A stretch of DNA of 64,000 nucleotides. It comes from Candidatus Gottesmanbacteria bacterium RIFCSPHIGHO2_01_FULL_40_15 (GTDB taxonomy: Bacteria > Patescibacteriota > Microgenomatia > 2-02-FULL-39-11). Positions 19,313 through 43,850 of this stretch are shown here, piece by piece. Below the pieces are notes generated by a model that was not told where the DNA came from, did no database searches, and was given only the letters and a program-made list of their open reading frames with translations. A program made the translations under genes and the position numbers. The DNA lies in the NCBI GenBank assembly GCA_001779115.1, contig MFJF01000015.1, positions 22,491 to 86,490 on the forward strand. The letters run 5' to 3'. The first letter of the stretch is position 1; each line of letters begins with the position of its first letter.

Positions 19313-21590
19313 AAAACACTTTTTCTTAATTCTTTTCTGTACGGTTGTTACGTTTTTTTATTTCCCCTTTTTTCTGTACGGTAAATTACCGGTAGCCGCC
19401 GACACCATCGTCGGAATGTATCACCCTTTCAGGGACAATATTTGGGACGGATTCAGAGCCGGTGTTCCTTTTAAAAATTACCTGATTACCGATCCGGTCA
19501 GACAGCAATATGTTTGGAGGGAATTGGCTGTAGACCAGATGAAAAAAGGTCAGCTTCCGGTCTGGAATCCTTATTCCTTTTCGGGAACGCCTCTTCTTGC
19601 CAATATTCAGGCTTCGGCTTTTTACCCCCTGAATATTCTCTTTTTTTTCCTGCCGTTTTCATTAGCCTGGTCCTGGCAGATAATTATCTCTGCGTTTTTG
19701 GCCGGAATTTTTATGTATTTATATCTAAGAAACAAAAATATTAGTCCTCCGGCTTCATTTATCGGAGCAATATCTTTCAGTTTTTCAGGCTTTGCTGTTT
19801 CCTGGCTCACCTGGAATACCATACTGCATACGGCCGCATTTCTTCCTTTATCTCTTTTTACCGCTGATAATATTTTTCTTCGTACCCGCCCCTTAAAACT
19901 CCACTTGGCGGTGTTTATTCTATCGCTTGTTTTCGCGTTTCTAGCCGGCCATCTGCAGATATTTTTTTACTCAATGATTTTAATCATCGCCAATATCCTT
20001 TTCAATCTCCGGACTCTTAAAAAAAATAAATTTTCTTATTTATTGTTATTTGGATTGAGTTTTCTGATTTTTATTCTTATCACTCTGCCTCAATCAATCC
20101 CCTTATTCCGTCTGATTTTTGAAAGTGCCCGGGATATTGATCAGGGCGTTTGGAGAAAAGTTGGCTGGTTTATTCCTTGGCAGAATTTAGTCCAGTTTCT
20201 GGTGCCTGATTTCTTCGGAAATCCGGCAACCGGTAATTATTTCGGTATTTGGAATTATATGGAATTTGTGGGGTATATAGGCGTAATCCCGCTGTTATTA
20301 TCCCTTTTTTCACTGGTTTTTATCCGCTCGCAATTAACTCTTTTTTTCGGCTCGGTTCTTATCATTTCCCTGCTGTTTGCATTCCCGACGCCTGTCGCCA
20401 GGCTTGTGTATATCTTCAATATTCCTCTAATTTCAACCGCCCAACCGACCCGGTTATTGTTCCTGGTTGATTTTTCACTGTCGGTTCTTGCCGCATATGG
20501 CCTTAACAGCCTGAAAGACTTTAAAAAATTCCGGAAAATGACAATAATTGCATTAATAATCTTTTTTGTATTTATTATATTATGGCTGTTGGTGTCTCTT
20601 CCTTTTGCCGAACCGCTTTTTTTCGATGAAGGTTTACGCTCAATCAGCCGCAGAAATCTGATCCTGCCCGGATTTATTTTTACGGCCGGCGCTCTTTCCC
20701 TGATGGGCTTTATAAAAAAACAATACAAGGCATCCCGGAAAATATTTATATTTGTTATTTTACTTTTAACAGTTGCCGATCTTATGAGATTTGCCTGGAA
20801 ATTTACACCCTTCAGCAACAGGAATTGGCTTTATCCCCAAACAAAAATTACCGATATTTTAAAAAGAGATACGTCCAAATGGCGTTTTATGTCCCTTGAC
20901 AGAAGAATAATGCCCCCTAATTTTTCAATCGCTTACAGGTTTGAAGACGCCGGTGGATATGATCCCTTATATCTCAAGGATTATAATCTGCTGGTATCTT
21001 CATGGAATCAGGGAAAAAGTGCGGTAGAAGCTTCCCCCTTTAACCGTATTGTCACTCCGCAAATTTCTGACAGTATTATTACCGATATTTTAAACGTCAA
21101 ATACCTTCTTTCGTACGGACCCTTATCATCAACAAAATTGAACTTAACGGCCGCCGAAGGAATGACCTATCTGTATGAGAATAAAAATGTTTTTCCAAGA
21201 GCCTGGCTGACCCCGTTTCTTATAAAAGTAAGTAATCAGGCACAGGTATTGGAAAAAATTTTTGAACTTAAAGATTTCCTGAAAACAATAACCGTCACAT
21301 CAGAGGCTGTTGATTTTAAAAATACCATCAATGCGCTTCCGGCTGTTATTCCCCCGGGCAATTCACCAAAAGACCGGGCAGACCTGGTGCTATGGAGCGA
21401 AAACAGCATCACTGTCAGGACATTTAGCGAAAAAACTCAAATTCTGGTGCTGTCGGAAATATATCATCCCTCCTGGAAAGTTAAAATTAACGGGAAAAAG
21501 GGTAAAATTTATAAAGTAAATTATCTTCTCCGCGGTATCCCTTTGGAAGAGGGTGAAAACCTGGTAGAGATGTCAGCCACCGTTTTTTGA
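19299..21590 (+). CDS. YfhO-family GT-C membrane glycosyltransferase
   Basis: 763 aa. N-terminal loop QLPVWNPYSFSGTPLLANIQASAFYP matches the YfhO signature. Many TM segments. C-terminal domain ends KVNYLLRGIPLEEGENLVEM. Confidence 0.7.
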   Translation: MNLYKKHFFLILFCTVVTFFYFPFFLYGKLPVAADTIVGMYHPFRDNIWDGFRAGVPFKNYLITDPVRQQYVWRELAVDQMKKGQLPVWNPYSFSGTPLLANIQASAFYPLNILFFFLPFSLAWSWQIIISAFLAGIFMYLYLRNKNISPPASFIGAISFSFSGFAVSWLTWNTILHTAAFLPLSLFTADNIFLRTRPLKLHLAVFILSLVFAFLAGHLQIFFYSMILIIANILFNLRTLKKNKFSYLLLFGLSFLIFILITLPQSIPLFRLIFESARDIDQGVWRKVGWFIPWQNLVQFLVPDFFGNPATGNYFGIWNYMEFVGYIGVIPLLLSLFSLVFIRSQLTLFFGSVLIISLLFAFPTPVARLVYIFNIPLISTAQPTRLLFLVDFSLSVLAAYGLNSLKDFKKFRKMTIIALIIFFVFIILWLLVSLPFAEPLFFDEGLRSISRRNLILPGFIFTAGALSLMGFIKKQYKASRKIFIFVILLLTVADLMRFAWKFTPFSNRNWLYPQTKITDILKRDTSKWRFMSLDRRIMPPNFSIAYRFEDAGGYDPLYLKDYNLLVSSWNQGKSAVEASPFNRIVTPQISDSIITDILNVKYLLSYGPLSSTKLNLTAAEGMTYLYENKNVFPRAWLTPFLIKVSNQAQVLEKIFELKDFLKTITVTSEAVDFKNTINALPAVIPPGNSPKDRADLVLWSENSITVRTFSEKTQILVLSEIYHPSWKVKINGKKGKIYKVNYLLRGIPLEEGENLVEMSATVF

Positions 21591-25084: not shown

Positions 25085-26758
25085 ATGAAAAAGACATTGG
25101 TGCTTTTGGGCGCCGTGACAATCCTGGCTGCTGTTTTAAGATTATACCGGCTGGGTTCAACGCCCATTTCCCTTGAGTGGGATGAAGTAGCCATCGGATA
25201 TGATGCTTATTCCCTAATAAAAACCGGCCGTGATCAGTTTGGGGATTTACTTCCTGTCACTTTCCGTTCACTGGATGATTACAAGCCTCCTATTTATGAA
25301 TATCTTACCGTTATTCCGGTTTCCGTTTTCGGATTAACCGGTTTTGCCGTCAGATTACCCTCTGCTTTGTCCGGTATCGGTATGGTTTTTCTTCTTTATT
25401 TTTTTGCCGGTATTTTATTTCAAAATATTTTTTTATTGAAAAATTACAAAAATAAAGCCGCTCTGCTGGCTTCTTTTTTATTGGCTGTTTCTCCCTGGCA
25501 TATTCAGTTTTCAAGGGCTGCCTTTGAAGTTAATGTGGCAGCTTTAATAACTGTTTCAGCGGTCTTTTTGTTCCTTAAAGGGCTCAAAAACCCCCGTTAT
25601 TTCATATATTCGGCAGGTCTTTTCGGGCTTGATTTATTTTCTTATCATTCTGCACGAGTTGTCGCGCCTCTTTTATTAATCTTCCTTTTTGTGATTTTTA
25701 ATAAATCCTTGCCCGGCAAAAAGCCGGTAATTTATTTTATGGTAATTTTTGGAGTTTTCCTTCTGGCTGTTCTGCCGGTCTTATTTTCCCAAAACGCCCA
25801 AATCAGATTTACGGCAACCAATATTTTCCGTCCGGCTGCCCGTTATCTGGATGAAAAAGACCTGGATAAGATTTTTCTTGAACAGAGATTGAACGATATA
25901 TTCAAGGGATATGAATTTAGCGGTAAAATTTTTCACAACCGCCGGTTAGTCTGGTTTGATTATGACACGCTTAAAAAAGCTTTTAATAATTATCTATCCA
26001 ATTACCGGTTTGAATATCTGTTTATCAAAGGAGATGCACCGCTCCATCATGCGCCCGGTTTTGGCTTATTTCATATGTGGGAGTTGCCGTATCTTGCCGC
26101 CGGGATAATCTTTTTACTGTTTAAAGGTTTAAACCGTTACAGCCTTTTTCTGCTTTTTTGGCTTTTAATTGCTCCTTTGCCCAATGCCGTCACCAGGGAA
26201 GCTCCTCACTCCGTCAGAACACTTCTGTTGCTTCCGGTCTATCAGCTGTTGGGGGCAGCCGGTCTGATTTATCTCTATAATTTGGCAAAAGAAAACTTTT
26301 GGGTTCTCTTTCTGCCGGTCACCATAATTACTTTTCTGTTTATAATAAATCACGGCTATTATCTGCATCAGTATTTCATCCATACCGATTTTGATGTTGC
26401 CGCAAACTGGAAATACGGCCGGAAACAGGCGGTAAATATTACTGAAAAAATAAAAATCAATTATGACCGGGTTCTGGTGTCTCTGTCTCTTGAGATGCCG
26501 CATGTTTTTTGGCTGTTTTACAGCCGGTTTCCTCCCGACCGGTATCTGGTAAACGGCGGGACAGTTTCGGGAGGTTATGCTGATGAGAGGAACTCTTTTG
26601 ATAAATATCAGTTTCGTAATTTTGATTATAAACTGTTAAAGGGTCAGGGAAACCTGCTGTTGGTCGGTACACCCGGTGATTTTCCGGCCGGAGCCGATAT
26701 TTTTGTAAACATTTATAACCCCGACGGTTCAGTTGCTCTGCAGATGGCCCGAAACTGA
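25085..26758 (+). CDS. PMT_2/ArnT-like GT-C membrane glycosyltransferase (B-family paralog B1)
   Basis: N-terminal signature LRLYRLGSTPISLEWDEVAIGYDAYSLIKTGRDQFGDLLPVTFRSLDDYKPP. Polytopic, with a C-terminal soluble domain. Confidence 0.65.
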   Translation: MKKTLVLLGAVTILAAVLRLYRLGSTPISLEWDEVAIGYDAYSLIKTGRDQFGDLLPVTFRSLDDYKPPIYEYLTVIPVSVFGLTGFAVRLPSALSGIGMVFLLYFFAGILFQNIFLLKNYKNKAALLASFLLAVSPWHIQFSRAAFEVNVAALITVSAVFLFLKGLKNPRYFIYSAGLFGLDLFSYHSARVVAPLLLIFLFVIFNKSLPGKKPVIYFMVIFGVFLLAVLPVLFSQNAQIRFTATNIFRPAARYLDEKDLDKIFLEQRLNDIFKGYEFSGKIFHNRRLVWFDYDTLKKAFNNYLSNYRFEYLFIKGDAPLHHAPGFGLFHMWELPYLAAGIIFLLFKGLNRYSLFLLFWLLIAPLPNAVTREAPHSVRTLLLLPVYQLLGAAGLIYLYNLAKENFWVLFLPVTIITFLFIINHGYYLHQYFIHTDFDVAANWKYGRKQAVNITEKIKINYDRVLVSLSLEMPHVFWLFYSRFPPDRYLVNGGTVSGGYADERNSFDKYQFRNFDYKLLKGQGNLLLVGTPGDFPAGADIFVNIYNPDGSVALQMARN

Positions 26759-26765
26759 TAATTTT

Positions 26766-27554
26766 ATGTCCGTCTTTCTGCTTTTAACTTTAATAAGCAT
26801 ATTTAATATCATTATCAGATTTTTTAACTCCTCCGCCCGGTTTAATTCTTCTCTTACCGCATTTGTCCCCGTTGTTTTATATTTTTATCTGGCTAATTAT
26901 TTTAAAAGAAAAAAAATTGCCCTTATCAGTTCATTTATTTTCAGCCTTTTACCGCAAACAGTGGCTTTAGGCCGGATCGCCTCTCCCGTAAATTTCCAGG
27001 TATTTCTGTTTTTGCTATTCCTGATATGTTTTTCCTATATCAGAAAAATATCTGTCCGGATCGGGCTTTTTTTTCTGTGGTTTTACATATCTTTTTTGAC
27101 CTTCAGGGGTTTTTGGTTTTATCACTCCTATCCCCAAAATTCTGTGTATAAATTGATGGAAAATATTTTCAATCTGACTTCTTTTAACCTTCTCTTTTTC
27201 AACAACGTGACATACTACTGGGGTGGCGTCAGGGAAAACGGTATATTGTATATTGCCCTGTTGCCTTTTTTTTTGATCGGGCTTTTTACCCTTATCCGGT
27301 CAAAAACTACAAACATCATAAGCGTCACGGCAGTCATATTCATTTTAACGGTCATGTCACCGTCATACCCTGAATCCAAGGAAATTTTCATGGCTTTTCC
27401 CATGCTGTCGGCCGTTACCGGCCGGGGTTTTTATGAATTATGGCACCGGAATAATTTGTTAAACCGGTTATTTACAGGGTTTTTGATTTTATTTCTTATT
27501 TATGAAACAGCCCAGTTTTTGCATTATTACTTTATTCATTTTCCCCTGGAATGA
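26766..27554 (+). CDS. polytopic membrane protein of unknown function. The ORF-track start is TTG 26733.
   Basis: About 260 aa and 6-8 hydrophobic segments, between paralogs B1 and B2. No recognisable motif. Confidence 0.4.
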   Translation: MSVFLLLTLISIFNIIIRFFNSSARFNSSLTAFVPVVLYFYLANYFKRKKIALISSFIFSLLPQTVALGRIASPVNFQVFLFLLFLICFSYIRKISVRIGLFFLWFYISFLTFRGFWFYHSYPQNSVYKLMENIFNLTSFNLLFFNNVTYYWGGVRENGILYIALLPFFLIGLFTLIRSKTTNIISVTAVIFILTVMSPSYPESKEIFMAFPMLSAVTGRGFYELWHRNNLLNRLFTGFLILFLIYETAQFLHYYFIHFPLE

Positions 27555-29200
27555 CGATGTTTAAAATAAATAAGGCGGTTTTTTTTCTGATCCTGATATT
27601 ATCACTGGCCACATGTCTTCGGCTTTGGAAATTGGATTCAATTCCTCCGTCATTATATTCGGATGAGGCAAATCTGGGTTATAATGCTTACTCAATTCTA
27701 AAGACCTTCCGGGACGAACACGGAATTTTTCTGCCCGTTTCATTGAGATCTTTCGGCGACTGGAAACCGCCCCTGCCGGCATATTTGATGATCCCTCCGA
27801 TTTACTTATTCGGCTTAAACGAATTTTCAGTCCGGCTGCCCTCAGCAATCCTTGGGGTAGGTTCTGTTTTCCTGATATACCGGTTGGTGAATTTAATCTT
27901 TTTGTCCGCTTCTTTCAGGGGAAAAGCCGCTCTTTTAAGTGCTTTTTTCCTGGCTCTTTCTCCCTGGCATCTGCTCCAGAGCCGTGCCTCCATGCTGGTA
28001 ATGGTTGCCCTTTATTTTCTCCAGCTCGGAGTTTATTTTTTTCTTAAAGGAAAAACTGACCGCCGTAATTTCTACTGGGGGTCCCTTTTTTTAACCGTGA
28101 CTTTTTATGCTTACTACGGAATGAGACTGATTTCACCGCTGCTTTTTTTAATTCTCATAATTTATAATTACCGGGAATTCTTCCGGAAAAAAATCTGGCT
28201 AAAATCTTTCCTGATAGTTTTGCTGATGATAACTCCGCTTATACTGGGTTTTATTAAAAATCCGGACGTAGTTTTCGGCCGGGCCAAAACAGTCAGTGTT
28301 TTTTATGACCGGGGAACAGATTTAAGATTGTGGGAACTGACAACTCAGGACGGTATTTCAGCCGATCCTCTTATAACGCGCTTTTTTCATAACCGCCCCT
28401 ATCAATTCGGTAAAAAAATCCTTTCCAATTTCTTTACCCATTTCCATGGAAAATTCCTTTTCCTGGAAGGGGATAAATCCCAGCCGTTTGAAACACCGGG
28501 AATGGGTATTTTATATCTTTTTGACGGCATTTTTATTCCGGCGGGCCTGTTTATCAGTTTAAAATTACGGTCTTCATTTGGTAAGTTTTTTGTAATTTGG
28601 CTCATAATATCAATTTTTCCGGCAGCCCTGACATTTATGGTCCCCTCTTCAAACCGGACTTTTAATGCTGTAATACCTCTGTCCGTGTATTTCTCACTGG
28701 GATTTTATTATTTTAGCAGGAAAATACATTCCCGGATTTTGGCGGCGCTATTTCTTACAGTTGTATATTTCTCGGCATTCACGTATTTTATGAAAATTTA
28801 TTTTATCAGCATACCCGAAAACTACAGCCATATATGGAATTACGGCTGGAAACAGGCAACCGGATTTGTCCAAAAACAGGCTGCTGATTATGACAATATA
28901 ATAGTATCGGATGTCGGAATGCCATATATATATTTCCTATTTTACAACAAATATGACCCGGCCAGGTTTCAAAAAGAAGCTGTCAGAAGTTATGCGGCCG
29001 ATCAGTTCGGATTTGAACATGTCCTCGGATTCAATAAATATCTTTTTATAAATGAAATGGACTGGCGGGAAACAAAAAATAGTCTGATGGATAATACTCT
29101 TTATCTTGTCCATAAAGACCGGATGGGGGAAGAAGTCGGGTCAGCTGAAGTTATAAAATACCAAAGCGGACTGCCTGCCGTTAATATCTTCAGGAATTAA
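27551..29200 (+). CDS. PMT_2/ArnT-like GT-C membrane glycosyltransferase (B2)
   Basis: LRLWKLDSIPPSLYSDEANLGYNAYSILKTFRDEHGIFLPVSLRSFGDWKPP. Confidence 0.65.
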   Translation: MTMFKINKAVFFLILILSLATCLRLWKLDSIPPSLYSDEANLGYNAYSILKTFRDEHGIFLPVSLRSFGDWKPPLPAYLMIPPIYLFGLNEFSVRLPSAILGVGSVFLIYRLVNLIFLSASFRGKAALLSAFFLALSPWHLLQSRASMLVMVALYFLQLGVYFFLKGKTDRRNFYWGSLFLTVTFYAYYGMRLISPLLFLILIIYNYREFFRKKIWLKSFLIVLLMITPLILGFIKNPDVVFGRAKTVSVFYDRGTDLRLWELTTQDGISADPLITRFFHNRPYQFGKKILSNFFTHFHGKFLFLEGDKSQPFETPGMGILYLFDGIFIPAGLFISLKLRSSFGKFFVIWLIISIFPAALTFMVPSSNRTFNAVIPLSVYFSLGFYYFSRKIHSRILAALFLTVVYFSAFTYFMKIYFISIPENYSHIWNYGWKQATGFVQKQAADYDNIIVSDVGMPYIYFLFYNKYDPARFQKEAVRSYAADQFGFEHVLGFNKYLFINEMDWRETKNSLMDNTLYLVHKDRMGEEVGSAEVIKYQSGLPAVNIFRN

Positions 29201-29204
29201 AAAA

Positions 29205-30830
29205 ATGTTTAAACGAAGGAGTTATCTGATTCTTATCCTTTTACTGGCGCTGTTCCTGCGTCTCTTCAAAATTAGCGATTTCCCCAAAACCCTTTACGGT
29301 GATGAGCAGGCTTTTGCCTGGAATGCTTATAATATTTTGAAAACCGGAACAGACGAATACGGTACCCCTTTCCCGCTCCAATTCCGTTCATTTAATGATT
29401 ACAAAGCGCCGGTTCCAGTCTATCTTTTGGTTCCGGTATTTAAACTTTTCGGGATGACTCCGGCATCAATCAGAATTCCAGTGTCTTTGGCTTCACTTTT
29501 AACTGTTTATGTTTTTTATTTATTAGTTTTTAAATTTCTTCCGGCAAAAATTTCACTTGTCTCCTCATTTCTGTTTACCGTTTCGCCTTGGCATATTCAT
29601 TTATCTCGGGGATATTTCGAGGCAACTCTTGCCCTGCTTTTTTTCCTGATTGCTTTATATTTCTTTTTTAAAGACAACTTTTCCCCCAAATCGCTACTAT
29701 TGAGCGGCTTATTTTTTGTCTCTGCTTTATACAGTTATTTTACTCCACGGATGCTGTTGCCTTTATTTATTCCGTTTATAATCTTTATTGGATTCCGCCT
29801 GCCTGTTACCGGGAAAAAAATAAATTACAAAAATGTTGCCCTTTTCCTAATTCTTATCTTTATCCTGTCGCTGCCCCTTATAAAGCTGACTTTCTTCGGG
29901 CAGGGTTTATCCCGTTTCAACAAATTAAATGAAACGGTCAGTCAGGCAATAATTCAGACGGTAAATAATGAACGGAAGGCTTCCAATCTGCCGCATTCCG
30001 TCCGGCCTTTTTTCCATAATAAGGCAACGGTTTGGCTGAGGTTCGTAAAAAACAATTATCTTGAACATTTCTCCCTTAACTTCTGGTATATATACGGGGA
30101 TAATTCCCTGAGGTATTTCCTGGGAAATATGGGCATGTTTTACCTTTTTGAAATGCCCTTTTTTATATTGGGGCTTGTTACGGTTTACGCTCGTCATAAG
30201 AACCTGTTTTATTTCCTGTCAGGCTGGCTCCTGTTGGCTCCGGTTCCTGCCTCCGTTGTCGGCCGGTCTTTTGCCGTCAGAAGCTTGAGCATGCTCCCGG
30301 TGCCGTTTATTTTTGTTGCCGCCGGAATTGATCAAATGACTTCATTTATAAAAAACCGGCCTTCCCGGAAAATATTCATCCTTACCCTGACAATGGTAAC
30401 TGTAACCTCGATCGGCGCCGTTTTAATCCGTTATTATTTGGAATATCCCGTATATGCGGCTACTTGGTGGGGGTGGGAAAATAAAGCCGCTATCGATTAT
30501 GCCAAAGCAAGGGAAAATAAATACCAGCAAATATTTATTTCCGACTTTTATACCGGTTCGACTTTGGCTTATGCTGTCTATAACAACTTTGACCCCCTTA
30601 AATACCGGCAGGCGGTAAATAATCCCGTTGTTATGGCCGACAACCGGCATTTTATTAAACTCGGCAAATATTATTTCGGTTCTCTTGATCTTGATGAAAA
30701 ACGACTATCAGAGGGAACAATTCCAAAAAAGTCGCTTTATATCGGAAGACCTGAAGAAGCCGCTTCGGATGAAACAATCAATGCTCCGGATGACGGCCGG
30801 ATAATTTTTATTATCCATAAAACAGAATAA
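29205..30830 (+). CDS. PMT_2/ArnT-like GT-C membrane glycosyltransferase (B3)
   Basis: LRLFKISDFPKTLYGDEQAFAWNAYNILKTGTDEYGTPFPLQFRSFNDYKAP. Confidence 0.65.
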   Translation: MFKRRSYLILILLLALFLRLFKISDFPKTLYGDEQAFAWNAYNILKTGTDEYGTPFPLQFRSFNDYKAPVPVYLLVPVFKLFGMTPASIRIPVSLASLLTVYVFYLLVFKFLPAKISLVSSFLFTVSPWHIHLSRGYFEATLALLFFLIALYFFFKDNFSPKSLLLSGLFFVSALYSYFTPRMLLPLFIPFIIFIGFRLPVTGKKINYKNVALFLILIFILSLPLIKLTFFGQGLSRFNKLNETVSQAIIQTVNNERKASNLPHSVRPFFHNKATVWLRFVKNNYLEHFSLNFWYIYGDNSLRYFLGNMGMFYLFEMPFFILGLVTVYARHKNLFYFLSGWLLLAPVPASVVGRSFAVRSLSMLPVPFIFVAAGIDQMTSFIKNRPSRKIFILTLTMVTVTSIGAVLIRYYLEYPVYAATWWGWENKAAIDYAKARENKYQQIFISDFYTGSTLAYAVYNNFDPLKYRQAVNNPVVMADNRHFIKLGKYYFGSLDLDEKRLSEGTIPKKSLYIGRPEEAASDETINAPDDGRIIFIIHKTE

Positions 30831-32800
30831 TGCTAGCCCCTCTGATTATTTTTTTGTTTTTCCTCCTCTTTTATGTCTTTATCCCCGGCATTTGTTTTCT
30901 CCACCTGGGAAAAATAAAAACGGATAATATTTTAATCGGTACCGGACTGGCAGGCTGCACCGGTTTGATTTTATTGATTTCACTTCTGATGCCTGCCAAG
31001 ATTATCAGGTTCCCTGATTTTATTATTTATTTATATCCTTTTATTTTTGCTTTTTCTTATCTGATTTTCCGGAAAAAATCTCAAAAAAAAGACGTTTTGA
31101 ATGTTGTGCGGATATTAAATTCAACCGGAGCAGTACTGTTATTGATTATGGTAAGCTCTTTAATCCAGTCATATACTCTTTTTTCAGGGGGAGTAAAGAC
31201 AGATGCGGGAATCCGTTTTCATTCGGTTCATGATAACCTGTGGAATATTTCCATAATCAATGAACTTAAAATTAAGGTCCCGCCCGATCATCCGGCTATT
31301 TCCGGGGAAGTTGTTAAAAACCATCATTATTTTTACCTGTATTTTCTCGCTTTGGCCAATAAAATAACAGCAATTTCCGTCTTTGATCTGTATTTCCGGT
31401 TCGGTCCGGTTTTTGTGTCTTTCTTATACGGTTTATCTTTGTATTCTGCGGCAGCCATATTTACCAAAAAAGTTCTTTTCCGTGCTGTTGCCGTATTCCT
31501 GGGTTATTTTTCCGGTAATCTGGCTTATCTGGCGCCTCTGTTTTTTTCCAATATAACTGATTGGCGGGCAAATCTTTTTTTTGCCGATCAGCCGTTTGAT
31601 CAGATATTTAATCCTTACACTGTTCTTGGGTTTGCCGTATTTTTATATGCTGCTTATTCATTGTCTTTTTTTCTAAGACAGAAAAAACCGGGTTACATTT
31701 GGCCTCTGATTATCTCCCTTTTTATCGCCGGTTCCTTCGGTATTAAATCATTCGGTTCAGTTATCCTTCTTGGTTCATTGCTTTTTACCGCTACGGTATC
31801 ATTTATTTTTTTCCGGGAAAAACGCCTGCTGTACCTGTCAATATTATCCATCTTACTTTTCCTGCCTGTTTTTTATCTGATAGCCGGTAAATCAAGCATT
31901 TCCCCGGTATTTATTCCCGGCTGGTTATTAAGGGAAATGATGACCGGCACCGATAAGCTCAATCAGCCGGTTTTTTCCGATATTGAAAATTACTATATTT
32001 CGGTTAATAACCTTGCCGGTTTATTAAAAATAAAATTGTTTGAACTTTTTATTTATATATTGGGAAATTTCGGTATGCGGTTATTGGGGTTTCTATTTCT
32101 CATGAGTATAATTCTTTCAAAAAAAGCGGTCCGGCTTAAAATCACTGCCCTGTTTATCCTCACTGCCGTCGTGCTTTCTATTTCGGTACCACTGTTATTT
32201 AATCTGTCAAATTCACCTTACAACATCATTCAGTTTACTCCGTATTCTCTGGTCCTTTTATCTGTCGCTTCGGCACTTTTTTTGGAGGATTTGAGGGATT
32301 TTTTAACTGCAAAAAAATTAGGGTTAATGGCTTATATTCTGATTTTATTCCTTATTATCAGCTCACTGCCGGTCAACATTAAAAATTTTTCCGGTAAGAT
32401 CAGGGAAGAGGGGGATATTATTGGAAGAGAAGATTTAGAAGGAGCCCAATTTCTGAAAGAGAAAGCCGGCCGCCAAAAAATTATACTAATTGATCCTGAT
32501 CAATTTCCCGGTTCAGCCATATATCTTCCGGCTTTAAGCGGGAAAAAATTTTACCTTGCCGATTCCGGCTATGCTCTTCAAACGGGAATAAGTCCGGAGA
32601 AAAAATTGGCATTGATCAGAAATTTTTTCGATACCGGAATGACTGACCGGAGTTTTCTTGATAAAAACAATATTGAATATATTTACCTGAAAAACGGCGG
32701 GCACCCGTTTGTGTTATTTGACCCCTCAACCGGCTTAACCGATAATATGTACCGAACTGTCTTTACCAACGGGAGTATCACTATCCTGCAGCTGAAATGA
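30830..32800 (+). CDS. large polytopic membrane protein with a C-terminal soluble domain. GT-C-like or polymerase-like, unclassified.
   Basis: 656 aa, at least 13 hydrophobic segments and a soluble tail of about 150 aa. TAATG overlap at the start, ATGA at the end. Confidence 0.45.
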   Translation: MLAPLIIFLFFLLFYVFIPGICFLHLGKIKTDNILIGTGLAGCTGLILLISLLMPAKIIRFPDFIIYLYPFIFAFSYLIFRKKSQKKDVLNVVRILNSTGAVLLLIMVSSLIQSYTLFSGGVKTDAGIRFHSVHDNLWNISIINELKIKVPPDHPAISGEVVKNHHYFYLYFLALANKITAISVFDLYFRFGPVFVSFLYGLSLYSAAAIFTKKVLFRAVAVFLGYFSGNLAYLAPLFFSNITDWRANLFFADQPFDQIFNPYTVLGFAVFLYAAYSLSFFLRQKKPGYIWPLIISLFIAGSFGIKSFGSVILLGSLLFTATVSFIFFREKRLLYLSILSILLFLPVFYLIAGKSSISPVFIPGWLLREMMTGTDKLNQPVFSDIENYYISVNNLAGLLKIKLFELFIYILGNFGMRLLGFLFLMSIILSKKAVRLKITALFILTAVVLSISVPLLFNLSNSPYNIIQFTPYSLVLLSVASALFLEDLRDFLTAKKLGLMAYILILFLIISSLPVNIKNFSGKIREEGDIIGREDLEGAQFLKEKAGRQKIILIDPDQFPGSAIYLPALSGKKFYLADSGYALQTGISPEKKLALIRNFFDTGMTDRSFLDKNNIEYIYLKNGGHPFVLFDPSTGLTDNMYRTVFTNGSITILQLK

Positions 32801-34407
32801 AGAAATTTCTTTTAATTCTTATTATTATAATCGCCATTTTTTTAAGGATTTGGCACCTGGATCTTAATCCGCCTTCACTTTATTGGGATGAAGCATCCCT
32901 GGGTTATAATGCTTATTCAATTCTATTATCGGGAGCTGACGAACACGGCGAAAAGTTACCTCTTGATCGGTTTATCGCTTTTGGCGATTACAAGCCGCCC
33001 GGTTACATATATTCAACTGTTTTTTCAATGGCGGTCTTTGGTCCGAATGAATTTGCCGTCCGGTTCCCTTCAGCAATGGGTGGAATCCTGATGGTTATAT
33101 TAACTTATTTTTTAACCAAAAAACTTTTAACTTCAGTAAAAGTTTCTTTATTGGCTTCATTTTTATTAGCTGTTTCTCCCTGGTCGATACATTTATCAAG
33201 GGCTGCTTTTGAAGCTAATTTGGCGGCTTTTTTCAATCTGGCTGCGGTTTTCTTTTTTCTTAAAGCCAAAAAAAAAGCCTCTTTTTTTATTCTGTCAGTT
33301 ATCTTTTTTGTCCTTTCTTTTTATACATTCAACGCCAACAGAATTATCGCCCCGGTTTTTCTTATTTCTTTGATTTTTATCCATTTTAAATTTATAAGGC
33401 AAAATCTTGTTTGGTACATTGCCGGTTTTATTTTGGCGGGATTTTTTATTTTGCCGTCGACCGGATTTTTACGAAGCCGGGAAAGCAGGCTCCGGTTCCA
33501 GGAAGTTTCCATATTCAACAGTATTGTCCCTGTTGAAATTGCCAATGCCAGAATTTCAAATGACGGTAATACGGCCATTGCCCGGCTTATCCATAACCGC
33601 CGGTTATTGTTCCTGGCGGATTATCTTAAACACTTAAGCGATAATTTTTCCGGCCGGTTTCTTTTTACCCACGGTGACGGCAATCCCAGATTATCAGTCC
33701 AGGGAATGGGACAGCTTTACTTCTGGGAACTTCCCTTTGCCGTTGCCGGATTATTTTTCCTGATACTTTATAAAAGATCAATTATTCCTCTTATTTTTGC
33801 CTGGATGGCAATAAGCGTTATTCCGGCCGGTGCTGCCCGAGAAACACCCCACGCTCTTAGAATTGTTTCCATACTGCCCTCATATCAGATTATTACGGCT
33901 TTCGGGCTTTACCGGTCAGCCCTTTGGTTGAAAGATATTTTTTCCCGGAAAAATTATATTGCGGCAATCTTTATTTCCGGCATTATATTTGTGTTTAATT
34001 TTTACTATTATATCCATCTTTATCATATCCACTTTCCTTCCGATTGGGCCGGGCAGTGGCAGTACGGCTATAAACAAATGGTAAATTATGTTTTAAATAT
34101 TAAGTCCCGCTATGACAGGATATTTATTACTTCAACGCTGGGCCGGCCCTATATTTTTTTCGCTTTTTATAAGCCGTATTTACCTTCCGAGTTTCAAAAA
34201 GAAAAAAAAGTCTCCCGGGATTGGTTTGGCTTCTATGAGGTTGAGGCTTTGGGAAAAATAAGTTTCGATACTTCAAATCTGTATAACGCTTCCGGCCGGA
34301 TTCTGTATGTCGGATCGGAAAATAAGCCGCCGGTCGGTTTCCGGTTCCTGGCGACAATAAACTCAAGTAGCCGGGAGCCGGTTTTCTATATTTGGGAAAA
34401 AACATGA
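32797..34407 (+). CDS. PMT_2/ArnT-like GT-C membrane glycosyltransferase (B4)
   Basis: LRIWHLDLNPPSLYWDEASLGYNAYSILLSGADEHGEKLPLDRFIAFGDYKPP. Confidence 0.65.
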   Translation: MKKFLLILIIIIAIFLRIWHLDLNPPSLYWDEASLGYNAYSILLSGADEHGEKLPLDRFIAFGDYKPPGYIYSTVFSMAVFGPNEFAVRFPSAMGGILMVILTYFLTKKLLTSVKVSLLASFLLAVSPWSIHLSRAAFEANLAAFFNLAAVFFFLKAKKKASFFILSVIFFVLSFYTFNANRIIAPVFLISLIFIHFKFIRQNLVWYIAGFILAGFFILPSTGFLRSRESRLRFQEVSIFNSIVPVEIANARISNDGNTAIARLIHNRRLLFLADYLKHLSDNFSGRFLFTHGDGNPRLSVQGMGQLYFWELPFAVAGLFFLILYKRSIIPLIFAWMAISVIPAGAARETPHALRIVSILPSYQIITAFGLYRSALWLKDIFSRKNYIAAIFISGIIFVFNFYYYIHLYHIHFPSDWAGQWQYGYKQMVNYVLNIKSRYDRIFITSTLGRPYIFFAFYKPYLPSEFQKEKKVSRDWFGFYEVEALGKISFDTSNLYNASGRILYVGSENKPPVGFRFLATINSSSREPVFYIWEKT

Positions 34408-35999
34408 CTAAAACTGCCAAAATTTTACTTTTACTGACATTGGTCTTAGCGTTTGTTCTCCGCGTTTGGAAACTGGGTGATAATCCTCCGTCTTTGGATT
34501 GGGATGAAGCATCTTTAGGCTATAATGCCTATTCCATTTTAAAAACCGGCCGGGATGAATATGGTAATTTTCTTCCCATGTCCATCCGCTCATTCAATGA
34601 TTACAAACCTCCTTTATATACTTATCTGGCCTTGCCCGCGGTTGCGGTTTTCGGACTGAATGAACTTTCGGTCCGCCTGCCTTCGGCGGTATTCGGATTT
34701 CTTGCCGTAATTTCCTGTTTTTATCTGGTCAGACTGATGAATCCCCAAAATATTAAATTAGCTTTGCTGACCGCCTTTTTCCTGTCAATTTCCCCGTGGC
34801 ATATCCAGTTCTCCAGGATCGCTTTTGAAGCCAATCTCGCCTTATCCTTATATATTTTGGCCATTACTCTTTTTCTCAAAAGCCTTAAAAGCGGTATTTT
34901 TTATCCGTTTTCCGCACTTGTATTTGCCTTGTCAATTTATTCTTACCACAGTCCCAGATTAATAATTCCGATAGTAGTTTTGGGTCTGGTTCTCCTTTAT
35001 TTTAAGAGAGTCACAGGCAAATTACCGTGGTTTTTGACCTTTGTTGTACTGCTGTTTGTCACAGCATTCCCGGTAATAAAAGAGATAAACCGGTCAACCG
35101 GAGCCCGTTTTTCCTCAGTCAGTGTTGTTAATCCTGATGAAAAATTAGGCGCTTCCATTGCCGCCATGGAATTTGACCGCCTGAGAGGGGAGCCTTTCGG
35201 AAAAATACTTCATAACCGGAGACTTGTTTTCGGCAGGGAAATTCTTGCAGGCTACCTGGATCATTTTAATTTTGATTTTCTTTTTCTGACCGGTGATCCT
35301 CCCGGCCGCCACCATGCTGCCGGCATGGGCATGCTTTATGTCACAGACCTGCCGTTAATTCTTCTCGGAATTGTTTTTCTTGCTCTTAATTTTAAAAAAA
35401 AGGCATTCCGCTTAATTCTCCTATTATTTTTTGCCGCCCCTCTTGCTTCATCATTGACTACCGGAACCCCGCACGCGGTTAGGGCAATTTTTTACCTTCC
35501 CGTCTATCAGATCATTGCCGCCCTGGGTTTGATTCGGGTCAGTAAAAAATCCTATTTCAAATATGTTTTCTGCCTTCTTTTAATTATTAATTTCCTTTAT
35601 TATCTCCATCAGTACTATGTCCATACCCCGGTGGAATATGCCTCGTCCTGGCAATACGGATATAAAGAAGCGGTTTATGAATCCGAAAAACACTATGGGT
35701 CCGTTGACAAAATTATAGTTACTTACCGGTATGATCAGCCTTATATTTATTTCCTTTTCTATAACCGGACTGATCCCGCTTGGTATCAATCATTATGGCG
35801 GGGTTATGCGATTAAAAGAGCAGAAAGGCAATATGACAAGTATGAATTCCGCAATATTAATTGGGAACAGGATAGCCAAATGAAAAATGCCTTGCTTATC
35901 GGAACGCCGGAAGAAATTCCTGATAATGCTCCGGGTATAACCAGAGAAATATTTTTTCCTGACGGCACTATCGCCTTCAGAATTGTTAAACGGATTTAG
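34404..35999 (+). CDS. PMT_2/ArnT-like GT-C membrane glycosyltransferase (B5)
   Basis: LRVWKLGDNPPSLDWDEASLGYNAYSILKTGRDEYGNFLPMSIRSFNDYKPP. ATGA overlap with B4. Confidence 0.65.
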   Translation: MTKTAKILLLLTLVLAFVLRVWKLGDNPPSLDWDEASLGYNAYSILKTGRDEYGNFLPMSIRSFNDYKPPLYTYLALPAVAVFGLNELSVRLPSAVFGFLAVISCFYLVRLMNPQNIKLALLTAFFLSISPWHIQFSRIAFEANLALSLYILAITLFLKSLKSGIFYPFSALVFALSIYSYHSPRLIIPIVVLGLVLLYFKRVTGKLPWFLTFVVLLFVTAFPVIKEINRSTGARFSSVSVVNPDEKLGASIAAMEFDRLRGEPFGKILHNRRLVFGREILAGYLDHFNFDFLFLTGDPPGRHHAAGMGMLYVTDLPLILLGIVFLALNFKKKAFRLILLLFFAAPLASSLTTGTPHAVRAIFYLPVYQIIAALGLIRVSKKSYFKYVFCLLLIINFLYYLHQYYVHTPVEYASSWQYGYKEAVYESEKHYGSVDKIIVTYRYDQPYIYFLFYNRTDPAWYQSLWRGYAIKRAERQYDKYEFRNINWEQDSQMKNALLIGTPEEIPDNAPGITREIFFPDGTIAFRIVKRI

Positions 36000-36956: not shown

Positions 36957-38432
36957 ATGGATAAAAATAAAAGCATAGTAGTTATGGGTGCCGGTTTGGC
37001 CGGTTTATCCTGTGCTTATGAACTGGCCAAAGCTGGCAAAAAAGTTACTGTTATTGAGAAATGGGAGGATGTCGGGGGATTGGCAAGAACAATAAAAGTA
37101 AACGGTTTTTCGTTTGATACCGGTCCCCACCGCTGGTATACCAAAAATGACATGGTTAACAATTGGATGCTTCAGCTGATGAAGAGCGAAATCACCAAAG
37201 TCCCCAGGTTAACCAGGATTTATTTCGATAATAAATTCTTCCATTATCCGATCCAAATAAAAAGTACCATAAAAGGCATGGGTCTGGTTAAAACTTTCTG
37301 GGCCGTTGTTGATTATCTTATGGTCAGGAGTTTGTCTTTCTTTCATAAGGCTGAACCGGTCACAATTGAAGAAGGCTATATCAGCCAATTCGGCCGGACG
37401 CTGTATGAAATGTTTTTCAAAAGATATACCGAAAAACTTTGGGGAAGATCCTGCCGGGAAATTTCCGCCGACTGGCTCGGACAGAGATCAAGGGGTTTCA
37501 ATATTTCAACCGTTATTAAAAATGCTCTTTTTTCAAAAGAGAAGGTCGTATCATTCGTGGATGAATTTTCATATCCACAAAAGGGTATAGGCCGCCTGGC
37601 CCAAAAATTGGCACAAGGAGTCAAAGAGGCAAAAGGCACTCTCTATTTAAACAGCGAAATCATCAAAATTAATCACCGGGCCGGAAAAATTAGTTCGGTT
37701 ACCGTCAAATCAGGTAAAAAATTATGGGAAATCAAAGGCGAAGAATTTGTTTCAACTATTGCTGTTTCGGACCTAATAAACGGCTTGATGCCGCCCGTTC
37801 CCGGAGCTGTAGCTAAATTCAATAACCGTCTTAAATACCGCGATGAAGTCCAGGTTGTTCTGTTTATAAATAAAACCCGTGTTACGCCGGACACCTGGGT
37901 TTATGTTCATGCTTTAGATATTCCTTTTGTCCGGTTCATGGAAATGGATAACTGGAGTAATAAACTCACGCCTAAAGGAAAAACAGCCATAGTTTTCGAA
38001 ATTGTCTGCAATTACGGTGATAAAGTATGGAATATGCCGGATAAGCGCCTGGCCGACCTCGTTTCTGAAAAATTCATCAGTAGTTTTAAATTAATCAAAA
38101 AGGAAAATATTATCGGCTGGCATATCCACCGTGTTCCCAAAGAATATCCTGTTTACCACATCGGCTACCGCAAAGACCTGGAGGTAATAAAATCATATCT
38201 TGGCAGGTTTTCCAATCTTCAGATTGCCGGAAGAAACGGGATTTTCCGTTATAACAATATGGACCATTCCATTGAAATGGGTCTTTATGCCGCCTGGAAC
38301 ATTCTTGAAGGAAGCCGGAATTTCAATATCGAATCGGTCAATATTGACAGGGAATATCTTGAGGAAAAGAAGGTTGTTTTAAGAGCACCTGAACTGCCGG
38401 AAGATCAGTATGTCCAAGAATATAAAAATTAA
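36957..38432 (+). CDS. FAD/NAD(P)-binding oxidoreductase with an amine-oxidase or UDP-galactopyranose-mutase-like fold
   Basis: The N-terminus VVMGAGLAGLSCAYELAKAGKKVTVIEKWEDVGGLARTIKVNGFSFDTGPHRW is a dinucleotide-binding signature. 491 aa. Confidence 0.5.
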   Translation: MDKNKSIVVMGAGLAGLSCAYELAKAGKKVTVIEKWEDVGGLARTIKVNGFSFDTGPHRWYTKNDMVNNWMLQLMKSEITKVPRLTRIYFDNKFFHYPIQIKSTIKGMGLVKTFWAVVDYLMVRSLSFFHKAEPVTIEEGYISQFGRTLYEMFFKRYTEKLWGRSCREISADWLGQRSRGFNISTVIKNALFSKEKVVSFVDEFSYPQKGIGRLAQKLAQGVKEAKGTLYLNSEIIKINHRAGKISSVTVKSGKKLWEIKGEEFVSTIAVSDLINGLMPPVPGAVAKFNNRLKYRDEVQVVLFINKTRVTPDTWVYVHALDIPFVRFMEMDNWSNKLTPKGKTAIVFEIVCNYGDKVWNMPDKRLADLVSEKFISSFKLIKKENIIGWHIHRVPKEYPVYHIGYRKDLEVIKSYLGRFSNLQIAGRNGIFRYNNMDHSIEMGLYAAWNILEGSRNFNIESVNIDREYLEEKKVVLRAPELPEDQYVQEYKN

Positions 38433-39183
38433 GGGAAACCCTAAAAAAAAAGTCATAGTGGTCATGCCGGCTTACAATGCCGCAAAGACCCTGGAGAAAA
38501 CTTACCGGGATATTCCCAATAAAAATGTTACGGAAATTCTGGTAGTCGATGATGACAGCTCGGACGAAACCGTCAGGATTGCAGGTAAGTTAAATCTGCC
38601 GACATTCCTTCACAAAAAAAATCTGGGATATGGGGGCAACCAAAAAACCTGTTATAAAAAGGCACTGCAAAGGGGAGCCGAAATTGTGGTCATGATACAT
38701 CCGGACTACCAGTATGATGCCACTCTCACGGATGAACTTGTTGCTCCTGTTGCCGCTTCTCGGTTTGATATAATGCTTGGCAGCAGGATCAGAAGCCGCC
38801 GGGAAGCTTTATCCGGAGGAATGCCCTATTACAAATATATAAGCAACCGTTTGCTGACACTATTGGAAAATCTGGTACTCGGGTTGAATTTGTCCGAATA
38901 TCATACCGGCTTCAGGGCGTTTAAAAGAAGTGTACTGAAAACTTTACCTTTGGACAGTTTTTCCGATGATTTCGTTTTTGATCAGGAAATTCTTATTTGC
39001 GCCCATGCGGCCGGATTTACGATAGGCGAAATACCGGTACCGGTCCGCTATTTTCCTGAAGCTTCGTCAATTAATTTCACCAGGTCGGTGGTTTACGGAC
39101 TGATGATAATTAGAACTCTTTTTTTATATCTTCTGCACAGAATGAAATTAAACATTAAGATATTCAGATTTAATAGGGCATAA
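38410..39183 (+). CDS. GT2 polyprenyl-phosphate sugar synthase (Dpm1/GtrB-like)
   Basis: KVIVVMPAYNAAKTLEKT...ILVVDDDSSDETVRIA. Lies immediately upstream of YfhO-like paralog A3. Confidence 0.7.
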   Translation: MSKNIKIKGNPKKKVIVVMPAYNAAKTLEKTYRDIPNKNVTEILVVDDDSSDETVRIAGKLNLPTFLHKKNLGYGGNQKTCYKKALQRGAEIVVMIHPDYQYDATLTDELVAPVAASRFDIMLGSRIRSRREALSGGMPYYKYISNRLLTLLENLVLGLNLSEYHTGFRAFKRSVLKTLPLDSFSDDFVFDQEILICAHAAGFTIGEIPVPVRYFPEASSINFTRSVVYGLMIIRTLFLYLLHRMKLNIKIFRFNRA

Positions 39184-39191
39184 AAAGGAAA

Positions 39192-40847
39192 ATGAAAAGG
39201 ATTGACTGGCTGGTAATTTTATTTATTATCCTCGCTTCGGTATTTACTCTGAAAGATCTTTTTCGGCCGGATTTCTACACCAGCCATGACGGACCGCATC
39301 AGGTTGTCAGACTCTATCATTATGATCAATTGTTGCGGCAAGGCCAAATACCTCCCCGGTGGGTCAATGACCTTAATCACGGTTTCGGCTACCCGCTTTT
39401 TATTTTTTCCTACCATATGCCCTGGCTGATATCCGCTCCCTTCATGTTTTTCGGATTATCAGTATTCATATCCATAAAAATGACTTATTTAACGGGTTTT
39501 ATACTTTCGGGAATTCTTATGTACTTTTATCAGAAAAAACTTTTTGGTGTTTTACCCGCATTTATAGGAGCTTTCCTGTATTTGTTTGCCCCTTACCGGT
39601 TCTCCAATATCTTTGTCAGGAGTTCAATAGGTGATGCTACCGCCTTTATTTTTCCGCCGCTTATTTTCTGGTCATTTGACGTTGTGCGTTCAAAAGGGAA
39701 ATTAAATTATTTTTGGCTTTTCCTCTATGCGGCCTCTCTATCGGCCCTTCTTTTGACCCATGCCATGCTATTTTTCCTGTATGTTTTAATCCTGTCGGTT
39801 TATATCCTTTACTGGTTCGTATTCTCCTCCAACAGGAAAAAAATTATTTCAGTTAATGTACTGGGATTCTTAATGGCTGTTTCCCTGTCAGCTTTTTATC
39901 TTTTTCCCTCCTTATTAGAAAGAAATTTTACTGTTTTTAATTCGGTAATGAAAAACGCGTTTTCTTCGCAGTCTTTTATCCCCATATCGCGCCTTTTTTA
40001 TTCACCCTGGGGGTATGGTGTTGTTGACGCGTATGAGGGCGCTATGTCGCTTCAGCTGGGTTTTGCCCAATGGTTGTCATTTCTACTTGGATTACTTCTA
40101 TTTATTTATTTACTGACAAGAAAATCAATGCGGAATATAAATTACGGCTTCATATATATTCTGATATTTATCCTGTCTGTATTTTTAATGCTGAAATCTT
40201 CAGCTCCGATTTGGCAGTTTATTACCCGCTTTGTCTTAATTGATTTTAAATGGCGGATTCTTCACGTGACGGTTTTTGCCGCTGCCATTATTTCGGGTTG
40301 GTTTATTTATAACCTAAAAATACTTAAGCGCCGCTTGTGGACGGCGTTTGCTGGATTTTTTCTTATTAGTCTTTCAATTTATGCCAACCGGAACCACCTG
40401 AAAATAAACCAGGTCCTTGATTGGCCGGTTGACTTTTACCTGAAATTGGAAAAAACCACCAATTCATTTGATGAGTATACGCCCATTTGGGCTCACGCGG
40501 GTATAATCAGGGAAAACGCGTCGCCGGCCGAATTTTCCGCTCCGGCCGGTATCAGGATTATCAGTTCCACATCGGTAAAAAAAGATCTGGAGCTGGAAAC
40601 AGAAAGTGAAGGAGTTTTAACCCTCAACACTCTTTATTATCCCGGTTGGCAGGTATTTATAAACGGTAAACCGGTTGATATTGATTACCAAAACCGCGGT
40701 CTGCTGGAATTTCCCGTTGCCAAAGGAAAAAATATTATTTCAGCCCGCTTTGAAAAAACACCTATGCGCCTGATATCGGATACCATCACCCTATCGGCTA
40801 TAATATTATTACCCGGATTCCTGATATACAAAAAAATCTATGGTTAG
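39192..40847 (+). CDS. YfhO-like GT-C family polytopic membrane protein (A-family paralog A3)
   Basis: HDGPHQVVRLYHYDQ...PPRWVNDLNHGFGYPLFIFSYHMPW and a C-terminal YYPGWQVFINGKPVD domain. Confidence 0.6.
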   Translation: MKRIDWLVILFIILASVFTLKDLFRPDFYTSHDGPHQVVRLYHYDQLLRQGQIPPRWVNDLNHGFGYPLFIFSYHMPWLISAPFMFFGLSVFISIKMTYLTGFILSGILMYFYQKKLFGVLPAFIGAFLYLFAPYRFSNIFVRSSIGDATAFIFPPLIFWSFDVVRSKGKLNYFWLFLYAASLSALLLTHAMLFFLYVLILSVYILYWFVFSSNRKKIISVNVLGFLMAVSLSAFYLFPSLLERNFTVFNSVMKNAFSSQSFIPISRLFYSPWGYGVVDAYEGAMSLQLGFAQWLSFLLGLLLFIYLLTRKSMRNINYGFIYILIFILSVFLMLKSSAPIWQFITRFVLIDFKWRILHVTVFAAAIISGWFIYNLKILKRRLWTAFAGFFLISLSIYANRNHLKINQVLDWPVDFYLKLEKTTNSFDEYTPIWAHAGIIRENASPAEFSAPAGIRIISSTSVKKDLELETESEGVLTLNTLYYPGWQVFINGKPVDIDYQNRGLLEFPVAKGKNIISARFEKTPMRLISDTITLSAIILLPGFLIYKKIYG

Positions 40848-43829: not shown

Positions 43830-43850
43830 AATTATTTCATTAGAAAAATA

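Follow-up and report, generated by a model that had tools for sequence, protein, structure and literature searches.

A tandem array of five PMT_2-type GT-C glycosyltransferase paralogs in a glycan-biosynthesis locus of Candidatus Gottesmanbacteria

Introduction

Tandem GT-C glycosyltransferase (GT) paralogs that share out the work are an established arrangement, seen in embCAB and among the ALG enzymes, and an Asp-Glu (DE) motif is the hallmark of the protein O-mannosyltransferases (PMTs), where the reference pairs are D77-E78 of yeast and D113-E114 of S. coelicolor, followed by a (V)HPP motif. Here we describe an array of five GT-C paralogs, named A to E, at positions 25085-35999 of a 64,000-nt stretch of the groundwater bacterium Candidatus Gottesmanbacteria RIFCSPHIGHO2_01_FULL_40_15 (contig MFJF01000015.1, 22,491-86,490 of the forward strand; G+C ~40%). 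This whole stretch is called the window below, and nearly all of it is a single glycan-biosynthesis region. We consider it probable that A-E are polyprenyl-phosphate-sugar-dependent GT-C transferases working on the outside of the membrane, each kept for a distinct step in making a surface glycoconjugate and supplied with donors by neighbouring family 2 glycosyltransferases (GT2s).

Bacteria of the Candidate Phyla Radiation (CPR, or Patescibacteria), to which this organism belongs, have genomes of ~1 Mb with minimal biosynthesis, and surface contact with a host is regarded as a key part of how they live. We know of no experimental work on their surface glycans. Literature searches that paired Gottesmanbacteria, Microgenomates, Patescibacteria or CPR with GT-C, GT39 or mannosyltransferase returned nothing relevant, and no published work on GT-C arrays in the CPR was found.

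Kelly et al., 2024 (PMC11127046) summarise both the assembly of mycobacterial arabinan and the three-component systems of extracytoplasmic glycosylation. The hallmark of GT-C class A is an acidic DxD, DD or DE motif in loop 1, shortly after the first transmembrane (TM) helix, and POMT-type members are reported to have 11 TM helices in N-in/C-out topology (PMC6801728). Lysine K85 of CmArnT is essential; ArnT D55 and K85 correspond to D113 and H159 of S. coelicolor Pmt, in which D113, H159 and the equivalents of ArnT D55/K85 are likewise essential (PMC8698208).

Results

The five copies are full-length paralogs on the plus strand: A at 25085-26758 (557 aa), B at 27551-29200 (549 aa), C at 29205-30830 (541 aa), D at 32797-34407 (536 aa) and E at 34404-35999 (531 aa), the last being the most conserved and the one that we modelled. 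In an all-against-all BLASTP comparison of the window open reading frames (ORFs) they share 27-38% identity over ~500-560 aa with E-values of 5e-42 to 6e-117, far beyond chance (A and E, for instance, are 37% identical at 6e-117). Alignment bears out, with small deviations, the common N-terminal signature that a first-pass annotation of this DNA had noted in five diverged paralogs: in each copy a TM helix comes first and then LR(L/V/I)(W/Y/F)xL..P..L.(W/S/G)DE...(G/A)(Y/W)(N/D)AY..(L/I)...(G/F).D(E/Q).G...P...(R/I)(S/A)(F/L).D(Y/W)K(P/A)P. The motif holds two acidic pairs. The first, D34-E35 (residue numbering is that of E throughout), is present in all five copies, but the second, written as DE in the earlier motif, is D-Q in A; the three key elements read WDE...RDQ...DYKPP in A, SDE...RDE...DWKPP in B, GDE...TDE...DYKAP in C, WDE...ADE...DYKPP in D and WDE...RDE...DYKPP in E.

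Assignment to the PMT_2/ArnT/PMT clan of GT-C enzymes is upheld by Pfam. The gathering threshold of PF13231 (PMT_2; 26.1 bits) is exceeded by every copy, with 38.8 bits for A, 42.9 for B, 36.6 for C, 40.9 for D and 32.6 for E, and that of PF02366 (PMT; 22.7 bits) is passed by B (39.5 bits) and D (48.7 bits). A, C and E have no PF02366 match at E <= 0.01, and many orthologs of E carry one. E is 100% identical to P0001, a hypothetical protein of Candidatus Gottesmanbacteria RIFCSPHIGHO2_01_FULL, and public databases name such proteins 'glycosyltransferase family 39 protein' or 'phospholipid carrier-dependent glycosyltransferase'.

The five genes stand in a row and in that sense form a tandem array, but they are not contiguous, as two further genes intervene (26766-27554 and 30830-32800). 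Four-nucleotide ATGA overlaps occur at 27551, 32797 and 34404, the latter two, which had been remarked on before, joining D to its neighbours at both ends, and a TAATG junction lies at 30830. Such coupling is tight and general, since exactly 4-nt overlaps are found in 50 of 131 adjacent same-strand pairs in relatives (74 of 131 overlap to some extent). As the first-pass annotation had proposed, the copies are strongly diverged and the duplication is old: DNA similarity is confined to patches of 45-160 nt with 72-81% identity in motif-coding regions, which argues against any recent duplication or gene conversion, and each paralog has its own orthologs at 48-58% identity in other genomes.

An AlphaFold2 model of E built with 45 homologs is of high quality (predicted local distance difference test 91.1, predicted template modelling score 0.90). 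It has TM1 (residues 3-21), a loop-1 helix (H33-48) that begins exactly at D34-E35, a beta-hairpin (61-68) and a second helix, followed by ten more TM helices, a long helical extracytoplasmic loop (232-312) and an alpha/beta C-terminal domain of ~115 aa. By our count, this model predicts 11 TM helices in N-in/C-out topology. The proteins thus have the polytopic fold of GT-C class A enzymes, with a conserved N-terminal TM module and a helix-bearing first extracytoplasmic loop, and the acidic motif of that class is present as D34-E35 in five of five copies and 97% conserved among 267 family members drawn from 82 loci (81 genomic loci and the window). Loop 1 is the best conserved region of the family. 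At least 94% conservation is seen at R20, P28, D34, E35, D51, P58, Y74, R91, P131, R138, N271, G309, G322, R360, G375 and Y404; all five window copies retain these near-invariant residues, and on that ground all five look active.

Comparison with characterised enzymes places the first DE pair at the position of the catalytic loop. A PDB search with the single D sequence gave no matches, and full-length profiles matched only CmArnT among the solved enzymes, weakly (E 6.6e-6, TM2-6). In that alignment DYK68PP falls on CmArnT 'FEKPP', whose aligned lysine is printed at chain position 88 and which we tentatively equate, with a three-residue offset, with the essential K85; by alignment, K68 is then the counterpart of the conserved, carrier-phosphate-binding lysine of ArnT. 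The DE motif of the PMTs comes into view only with an N-terminal-only profile, which sets LRxW.L..P...DE in register with C. thermophilum Pmt4 'LTRFWGIS-HPDQVVFDEVHFG' at an E-value of 2.3, not significant alone. The DE pair then coincides with that of CtPmt4 'VVFDEVHFG' and DYKPP takes the HPP/KPP position, and the PF02366 matches, which start at profile position 3, are consistent with this. The spacings also agree, with 23 residues from K68 to R91 and 47 from R91 to R138, against 23 from H159 to R182 and 46 from R182 to R228 in S. coelicolor Pmt. Alignment and model together thus put the shared motif on the catalytic loop of a GT-C fold, as had been supposed.

The function implied by the earlier label 'ArnT-like' fared less well. 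Were A-E transferases of the ArnT type (GT83, undecaprenyl-phosphate-4-amino-4-deoxyarabinose:lipid A transferase), modifying lipid A or another lipid with aminoarabinose, one might point to the CmArnT alignment above. Yet D reaches only 16.5 bits against the ArnT equivalog model NF009784, whose cut-off is 567, and the other copies do not match it at all; on this score we rejected the assignment. ArnT has 13 TM helices as opposed to the 11 of the E model, no arnA/B/C/D set or other aminoarabinose pathway gene accompanies the array and CPR bacteria are not known to have either lipid A or an outer membrane, so that such a role is extremely improbable. An oligosaccharyltransferase (OST) identity was also rejected. 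The WWDYG motif of STT3, AglB and PglB (GT66) is absent from A-E, which have W..YG.K, distinct from WWDYG, right after the last TM helix, and it is absent from the 656-aa protein encoded between C and D; the PMT_2 paralogs instead carry loop motifs of the PMT type.

A genome-collection scan yielded at least 577 related stretches, from Gottesman-, Levy-, Roizman- and Chisholmbacteria, and the A-E subfamily is confined mainly to the Microgenomates (CPR). Counted per locus of ~21 kb, where flanks are cut and the numbers are lower bounds, three copies occur in 22 loci, two in 17, four in 16, six in 11, one in 10, five in 5 and seven in 4. Tandem arrays of two to seven copies are common in Microgenomates, and the layout seen here is normal for the lineage. 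Other Gottesmanbacteria have syntenic loci in which six or seven PMT_2 copies are followed by a common downstream block (FAD oxidoreductase, GT2, 550-aa polytopic protein, GT2, GT4 and PIG-V-like protein), and the order ...B..C-[656]-D-E is kept among them. One locus (L005) is arranged as A-mini-B-C-D-E with 48-58% identity throughout, and another (L001) has orthologs of C and of the 656-aa gene. The orthologs of D and E are 1:1, 50-56% identical and arranged in conserved order. Identities are 44-48% for A (in L005, L023, L046 and L049), 43-51% for B (11 loci), 49-58% for C (14 loci) and 46-57% for D, whose orthologs lie directly upstream of E-type copies in most loci. Clustering at 50% identity gives orthogroups of 46 (E), 25 (D), 14 (C), 8 (B) and 1 (A) members, that of A rising to 5 at 45%. 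The 3' end of the array (C, D, E) is stable and the 5' end more fluid.

This fluidity bears on the idea that the array is a variable surface-diversification cassette, its copies partly redundant and gained or lost quickly, for example under pressure from phage or host. Copy number does range from one to at least seven per 21-kb locus, and the 5' part (A, B and their neighbours) is poor in 1:1 orthology between genomes. But C, D and E are stable, the orthogroups can be followed from genome to genome at ~50% identity, every near-invariant residue is kept in all five window paralogs, and the DNA bears no sign of recent duplication or gene conversion. We judge the cassette improbable.

Two observations on the relatives stand apart from these comparisons. 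In L001 a full-length paralog (3060-4790) has T-E in place of D-E (QTEAAFGYNAY) and may be inactive or mechanistically altered. Microgenomates-type arrays, at 40-58% identity, also occur in records titled 'uncultured Gammaproteobacteria' (L005, L007, L009, L013, L014 and others), and in one record each titled 'Bacteroidota', 'Pacearchaeota' and 'Limnocylindrales'; these titles of metagenome-assembled genomes look wrong.

Both proteins encoded by the intervening genes are of interest in their own right. The first, which we call mini GT-C (26766-27554, plus strand, 262 aa; in the ORF list it begins with a TTG at 26733), lies between A and B and is joined to B by the overlap at 27551. Profile alignment with the full-length family (hhalign) is highly significant (Prob 99.75%, E 3e-27) and collinear apart from three deletions: loop 1 (~31-88) is gone, so are residues ~170-285, which comprise TM5-7 and some of the long loop, and the C-terminal domain is missing as well. 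The protein ends exactly at the '...LHYYFIHFP' motif, with which the last TM helix finishes in full-length members. D34, E35, D51 and K68 are missing, and the equivalents of R91, R138 and R360 are retained. An exhaustive search with this protein gave 111 clusters, the great majority 285-300 aa long and covering the whole query, with full-length PMT_2 proteins entering only from E ~1e-7; the family itself amounts to ~95 clusters in a library of 1.8 billion proteins and has no Pfam family of its own. ORFs of 260-320 aa occupy the equivalent array position in at least seven related genomes (L005:3933-5000, L007:745-1671, L010:828-1739, L012:1036-1920, L018:760-1545, L022:790-1671 and L046:2674-3555). 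In two pairs of relatives the ratio of nonsynonymous to synonymous substitution rates (dN/dS) is 0.16 (dS 0.86) and 0.21; the family is under purifying selection there. The window's own copy is the most degenerate and has lost the LG..PP stretch. That the ORF at 26733 is a decaying pseudogene was rejected, because its orthologs are conserved and under selection. The family descends from PMT_2 paralogs that lost the DE loop, TM5-7 and the C-terminal domain, and is almost certainly a conserved non-catalytic GT-C derivative.

The second intervening gene (30830-32800, plus strand), between C and D, encodes a protein of 656 aa to which neither Pfam nor NCBIfam assigns a family. Its N-terminus bears three extra TM helices, its loop helix begins with an invariant H134-D135 pair, and its C-terminus forms an AglB-like globular domain. 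Among its 50 homologs, those with a source name are all from Gottesmanbacteria, Microgenomates or Patescibacteria. In a profile-profile comparison this family did not match the PMT_2 family significantly (Prob 11%), and we take the protein, from its predicted fold, to be a GT-C unrelated in sequence to A-E. Together with mini GT-C it is the most original item in the array.

Mini GT-C and the gene overlaps raise the question of physical association. The copies could form putative hetero-oligomers, D with E in the manner of Pmt1-Pmt2 or EmbA-EmbB, with mini GT-C as a non-catalytic carrier-binding subunit and translational coupling setting the stoichiometry. D and E are indeed neighbours in most loci across Microgenomates, 4-nt overlaps are frequent, and the mini protein combines conservation (dN/dS 0.16-0.21) with loss of the loop-1 residues and retention of the three arginines; PMTs are, moreover, described as obligate dimers (PMC12705809). 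Overlapping starts are, however, common to any compact operon, and in many loci no clear D accompanies the E-type copy. Such oligomers seem to us quite unlikely. In an extended version, the array would be a multi-subunit extracytoplasmic glycan-assembly machine in which coupled GT-Cs (such as D-E) pair and mini GT-C, as a catalytically dead subunit, hands over, flips or recycles the polyprenyl-phosphate carrier. If true, mini GT-C would represent a family of GT-C-derived pseudoenzymes not described so far and would fill the role of the flippase missing from the locus. This version, too, seems to us improbable.

Two further PMT_2 proteins are cut by the window edges. The gene at 1-1389 (plus strand) encodes the C-terminal 462 aa of the 491-aa protein P0282 and scores 64 bits with PF13231. 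It had been counted as a sixth copy of the same set, but this does not hold: its product is only weakly similar to A-E (BLASTP E 5e-6 to 3e-4 over ~90-130 aa), loop 1 is short, and it belongs to a different PMT_2 subfamily. Full-length P0282 starts MDFVVLSLFALLAFISRVVNLLEVPIFTDEAIYIRW...DGKQP, and the region of its DE motif reads '...VPIFTDEAIYIRW...DGKQP' (FTDE...DGKQP), that is, a generic GT-C DE motif without the GYNAYS..TG.DE.G insertion. The window begins at the E of this pair, TM1 and the D lying outside. At the other end, an ORF at 61729-63999 (plus strand) extends unbroken for at least 757 codons until the window stops and is a seventh PMT_2-type ORF (PF13231 27.9 bits against the threshold of 26.1); the apparent 2.2-kb non-coding tail of the window is this ORF running off the end.

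Between 9882 and 46629 all ORFs of at least 150 aa lie on the plus strand with minimal spacing, with the exception of a 187-aa minus-strand ORF within 19299-21590. Scans of the window for tRNA and Rfam families gave no matches, and a promoter scan gave no more sites than shuffled controls and marked no boundary inside the array. Terminator-like hairpins between 22000 and 38500 number 31 against 21.8 in shuffles (sd 4.4); every one lies within coding sequence, none marks a boundary inside the array, and the excess is probably a by-product of the T-rich coding sequence of membrane proteins.

Five small GT2s (PF00535) are candidate polyprenyl-phosphate sugar synthases (4722-5459, 7607-8350, 38410-39183, 43771-44535 on the plus strand and 47838-48527 on the minus strand). 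Their best NCBIfam matches are AglJ, dolichyl-phosphate hexose transferase and PpgS, none of which reaches its equivalog cut-off (PpgS and the 43771 product, for example, match at 139.8 bits). The co-directional cluster also includes a Wzx-type (Polysacc_synt_3) flippase (12490-13935, plus strand; PF13440 158.8 bits). Altogether the window has at least ten ORFs matching GT-C families and six more polytopic proteins that are unassigned. Three proteins of ~550 aa (1389-3038, 3028-4749 and 39192-40847) share 28-31% mutual identity and have weak, sub-threshold YfhO and PTPS_related matches; they are probably another GT-C family. The last of them (551 aa, plus strand) belongs to the conserved block downstream of the array, has a C-terminal YfhO match of 28 bits, just below the gathering threshold, and has orthologs of 45-52% identity at the same position in L001 and L003. 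A YfhO homolog (19299-21590), a PIG-V-like protein (42690) and further unassigned polytopic proteins (9882, 11381, 13928 and 49549) are present, as are GT4s, six epimerase/dehydratases, an RmlD-like reductase, DegT and class I aminotransferases, an AsnB-like amidotransferase, an ATP-grasp enzyme, methyltransferases and a haloacid dehalogenase-type (HAD) phosphatase.

Directly downstream of the array, and syntenic in relatives, are an NAD-dependent epimerase/dehydratase (35983/36008-36951), an FAD oxidoreductase (36957-38432) and the small GT2 at 38410-39183. The oxidoreductase is of the NCBIfam PRK07208 type (439.8 bits) and has an N-terminus like that of UDP-galactopyranose mutase. That this trio resembles the logic of DprE1/DprE2, and might epimerise a lipid-linked sugar, is pure speculation by analogy. 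A sub-cluster at 53576-61753 (AsnB-like amidotransferase, ATP-grasp enzyme, two S-adenosylmethionine methyltransferases, GFO/IDH/MocA oxidoreductase and HAD phosphatase) suggests the making of an unusual amidated or methylated sugar. A tRNA-guanine transglycosylase gene on the minus strand (8360-9526; TGT, 390 bits) splits the glycan region into two blocks.

Discussion

We favour a model in which the five genes encode catalytically competent, 11-TM, N-in/C-out class A GT-Cs of the PMT_2 clan. On the outer side of the cytoplasmic membrane, each would most likely accept a sugar carried by polyprenyl phosphate and pass it on to a cell-surface glycoconjugate. The active site and the phosphate-binding site would be formed by loop 1 (D34-E35, D51, K68) together with the conserved arginines R91, R138 and R360. 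Donors would be supplied by the five DPM1/PpgS-like GT2s and by the sugar-nucleotide-modifying enzymes of the same co-directional cluster. The paralogs would descend from an ancient tandem duplication and have since been kept as separate orthogroups, and this history makes it likeliest that the steps of an extracytoplasmic line for glycan assembly or decoration are divided among them, each paralog differing in sugar, linkage or acceptor position. That every paralog serves its own linkage or acceptor, as had been suggested earlier, is plausible in view of the long-term retention of each orthogroup. Homology, fold, motif conservation, synteny and retention are what the data above show directly, and donor class, topology and division of labour are our inference.

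Several observations weigh against this model. A-E resemble solved enzymes only weakly in sequence (ArnT, the best match, has E 6.6e-6), and the GT2 scores lie far below the equivalog cut-offs. Among the scanned window ORFs no lipid-phosphate-sugar flippase (GtrA/SMR or MATE) was found, only the Wzx-type one, and the cluster has no free space left for a small ORF. For A and B, some relatives have no 1:1 ortholog, a possible sign of partial redundancy. Finally, a strict test for group-specific residues returned only three sites and does not demonstrate functional divergence at the residue level; specificity determinants drawn from residues fixed differently in each orthogroup were dropped, as three sites are too few.

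With most of 64 kb given to glycan genes and with its many GT-C matches, the locus suggests that an elaborate glycan is built on the outside of the membrane. What is supplied here is a set of defined orthogroups, a confident structural model and the candidate catalytic residues D34, E35, D51, K68, R91, R138 and R360, along with two unannotated protein families, mini GT-C and the 656-aa GT-C with its AglB-like domain.

Of the known enzymes, PMT/Pmt (GT39, PF02366) share the loop-1 features with A-E, and it may be asked whether A-E are protein O-glycosyltransferases like bacterial Pmt, mannosylating or hexosylating Ser/Thr residues of secreted, pilus or S-layer proteins, with target proteins or sequence contexts that differ between paralogs. 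Enzymes of the PMT family use polyprenyl-phosphate mannose as donor and proteins, at Ser/Thr, as acceptor. The DE and DYKPP registers and the matching spacings fit this idea. In contrast to PMTs, A-E have no MIR domain, the lumenal beta-trefoil of the eukaryotic enzymes (no Pfam match, and loop 232-312 is helical in the E model), carry in loop 1 an extra insertion of ~20 residues bearing a second conserved Asp (D51), and end in an alpha/beta extracytoplasmic domain of ~115 aa; the PF02366 threshold is reached by only two of the five copies, and where bacterial Pmt is one gene there are here five to seven tandem paralogs. We regard protein O-glycosylation as unlikely, although it is the alternative we take most seriously.

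The model of lipid-linked donors used by several extracytoplasmic transferases parallels the three-component systems (GtrA/B/C, CsbB-GtcA-YfhO, GT136), in which a GT2 makes the lipid-phosphate sugar and a GT-C acts after its export (PMC11127046). As in CsbB-GtcA-YfhO, a YfhO homolog is present in the locus. Here, however, the small GtrA/SMR or MATE flippase is not found, and many GT-Cs face five GT2s instead of the 1:1:1 arrangement.

Mycobacterial arabinan assembly provides the other parallel. A-E have no sequence relationship to GT53, GT85 or GT87 and are smaller than the mycobacterial enzymes, and neither carbohydrate-binding modules nor the phosphoribosyl pyrophosphate/decaprenylphosphoryl arabinose pathway was detected. 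Like embC-embA-embB and the Aft arabinofuranosyltransferases, they are tandem GT-C paralogs, which in those systems have distinct acceptor specificities and build an extracytoplasmic envelope glycan from polyprenyl-phosphate sugars. Because a tandem GT-C array is a known design, the conceptual surprise is modest. The likeness extends to individual members: the GT2 at 43771, with PpgS as its best match, recalls the PpgS/Rv3779 pair, and the 656-aa protein aligns with AftA over 469 residues.

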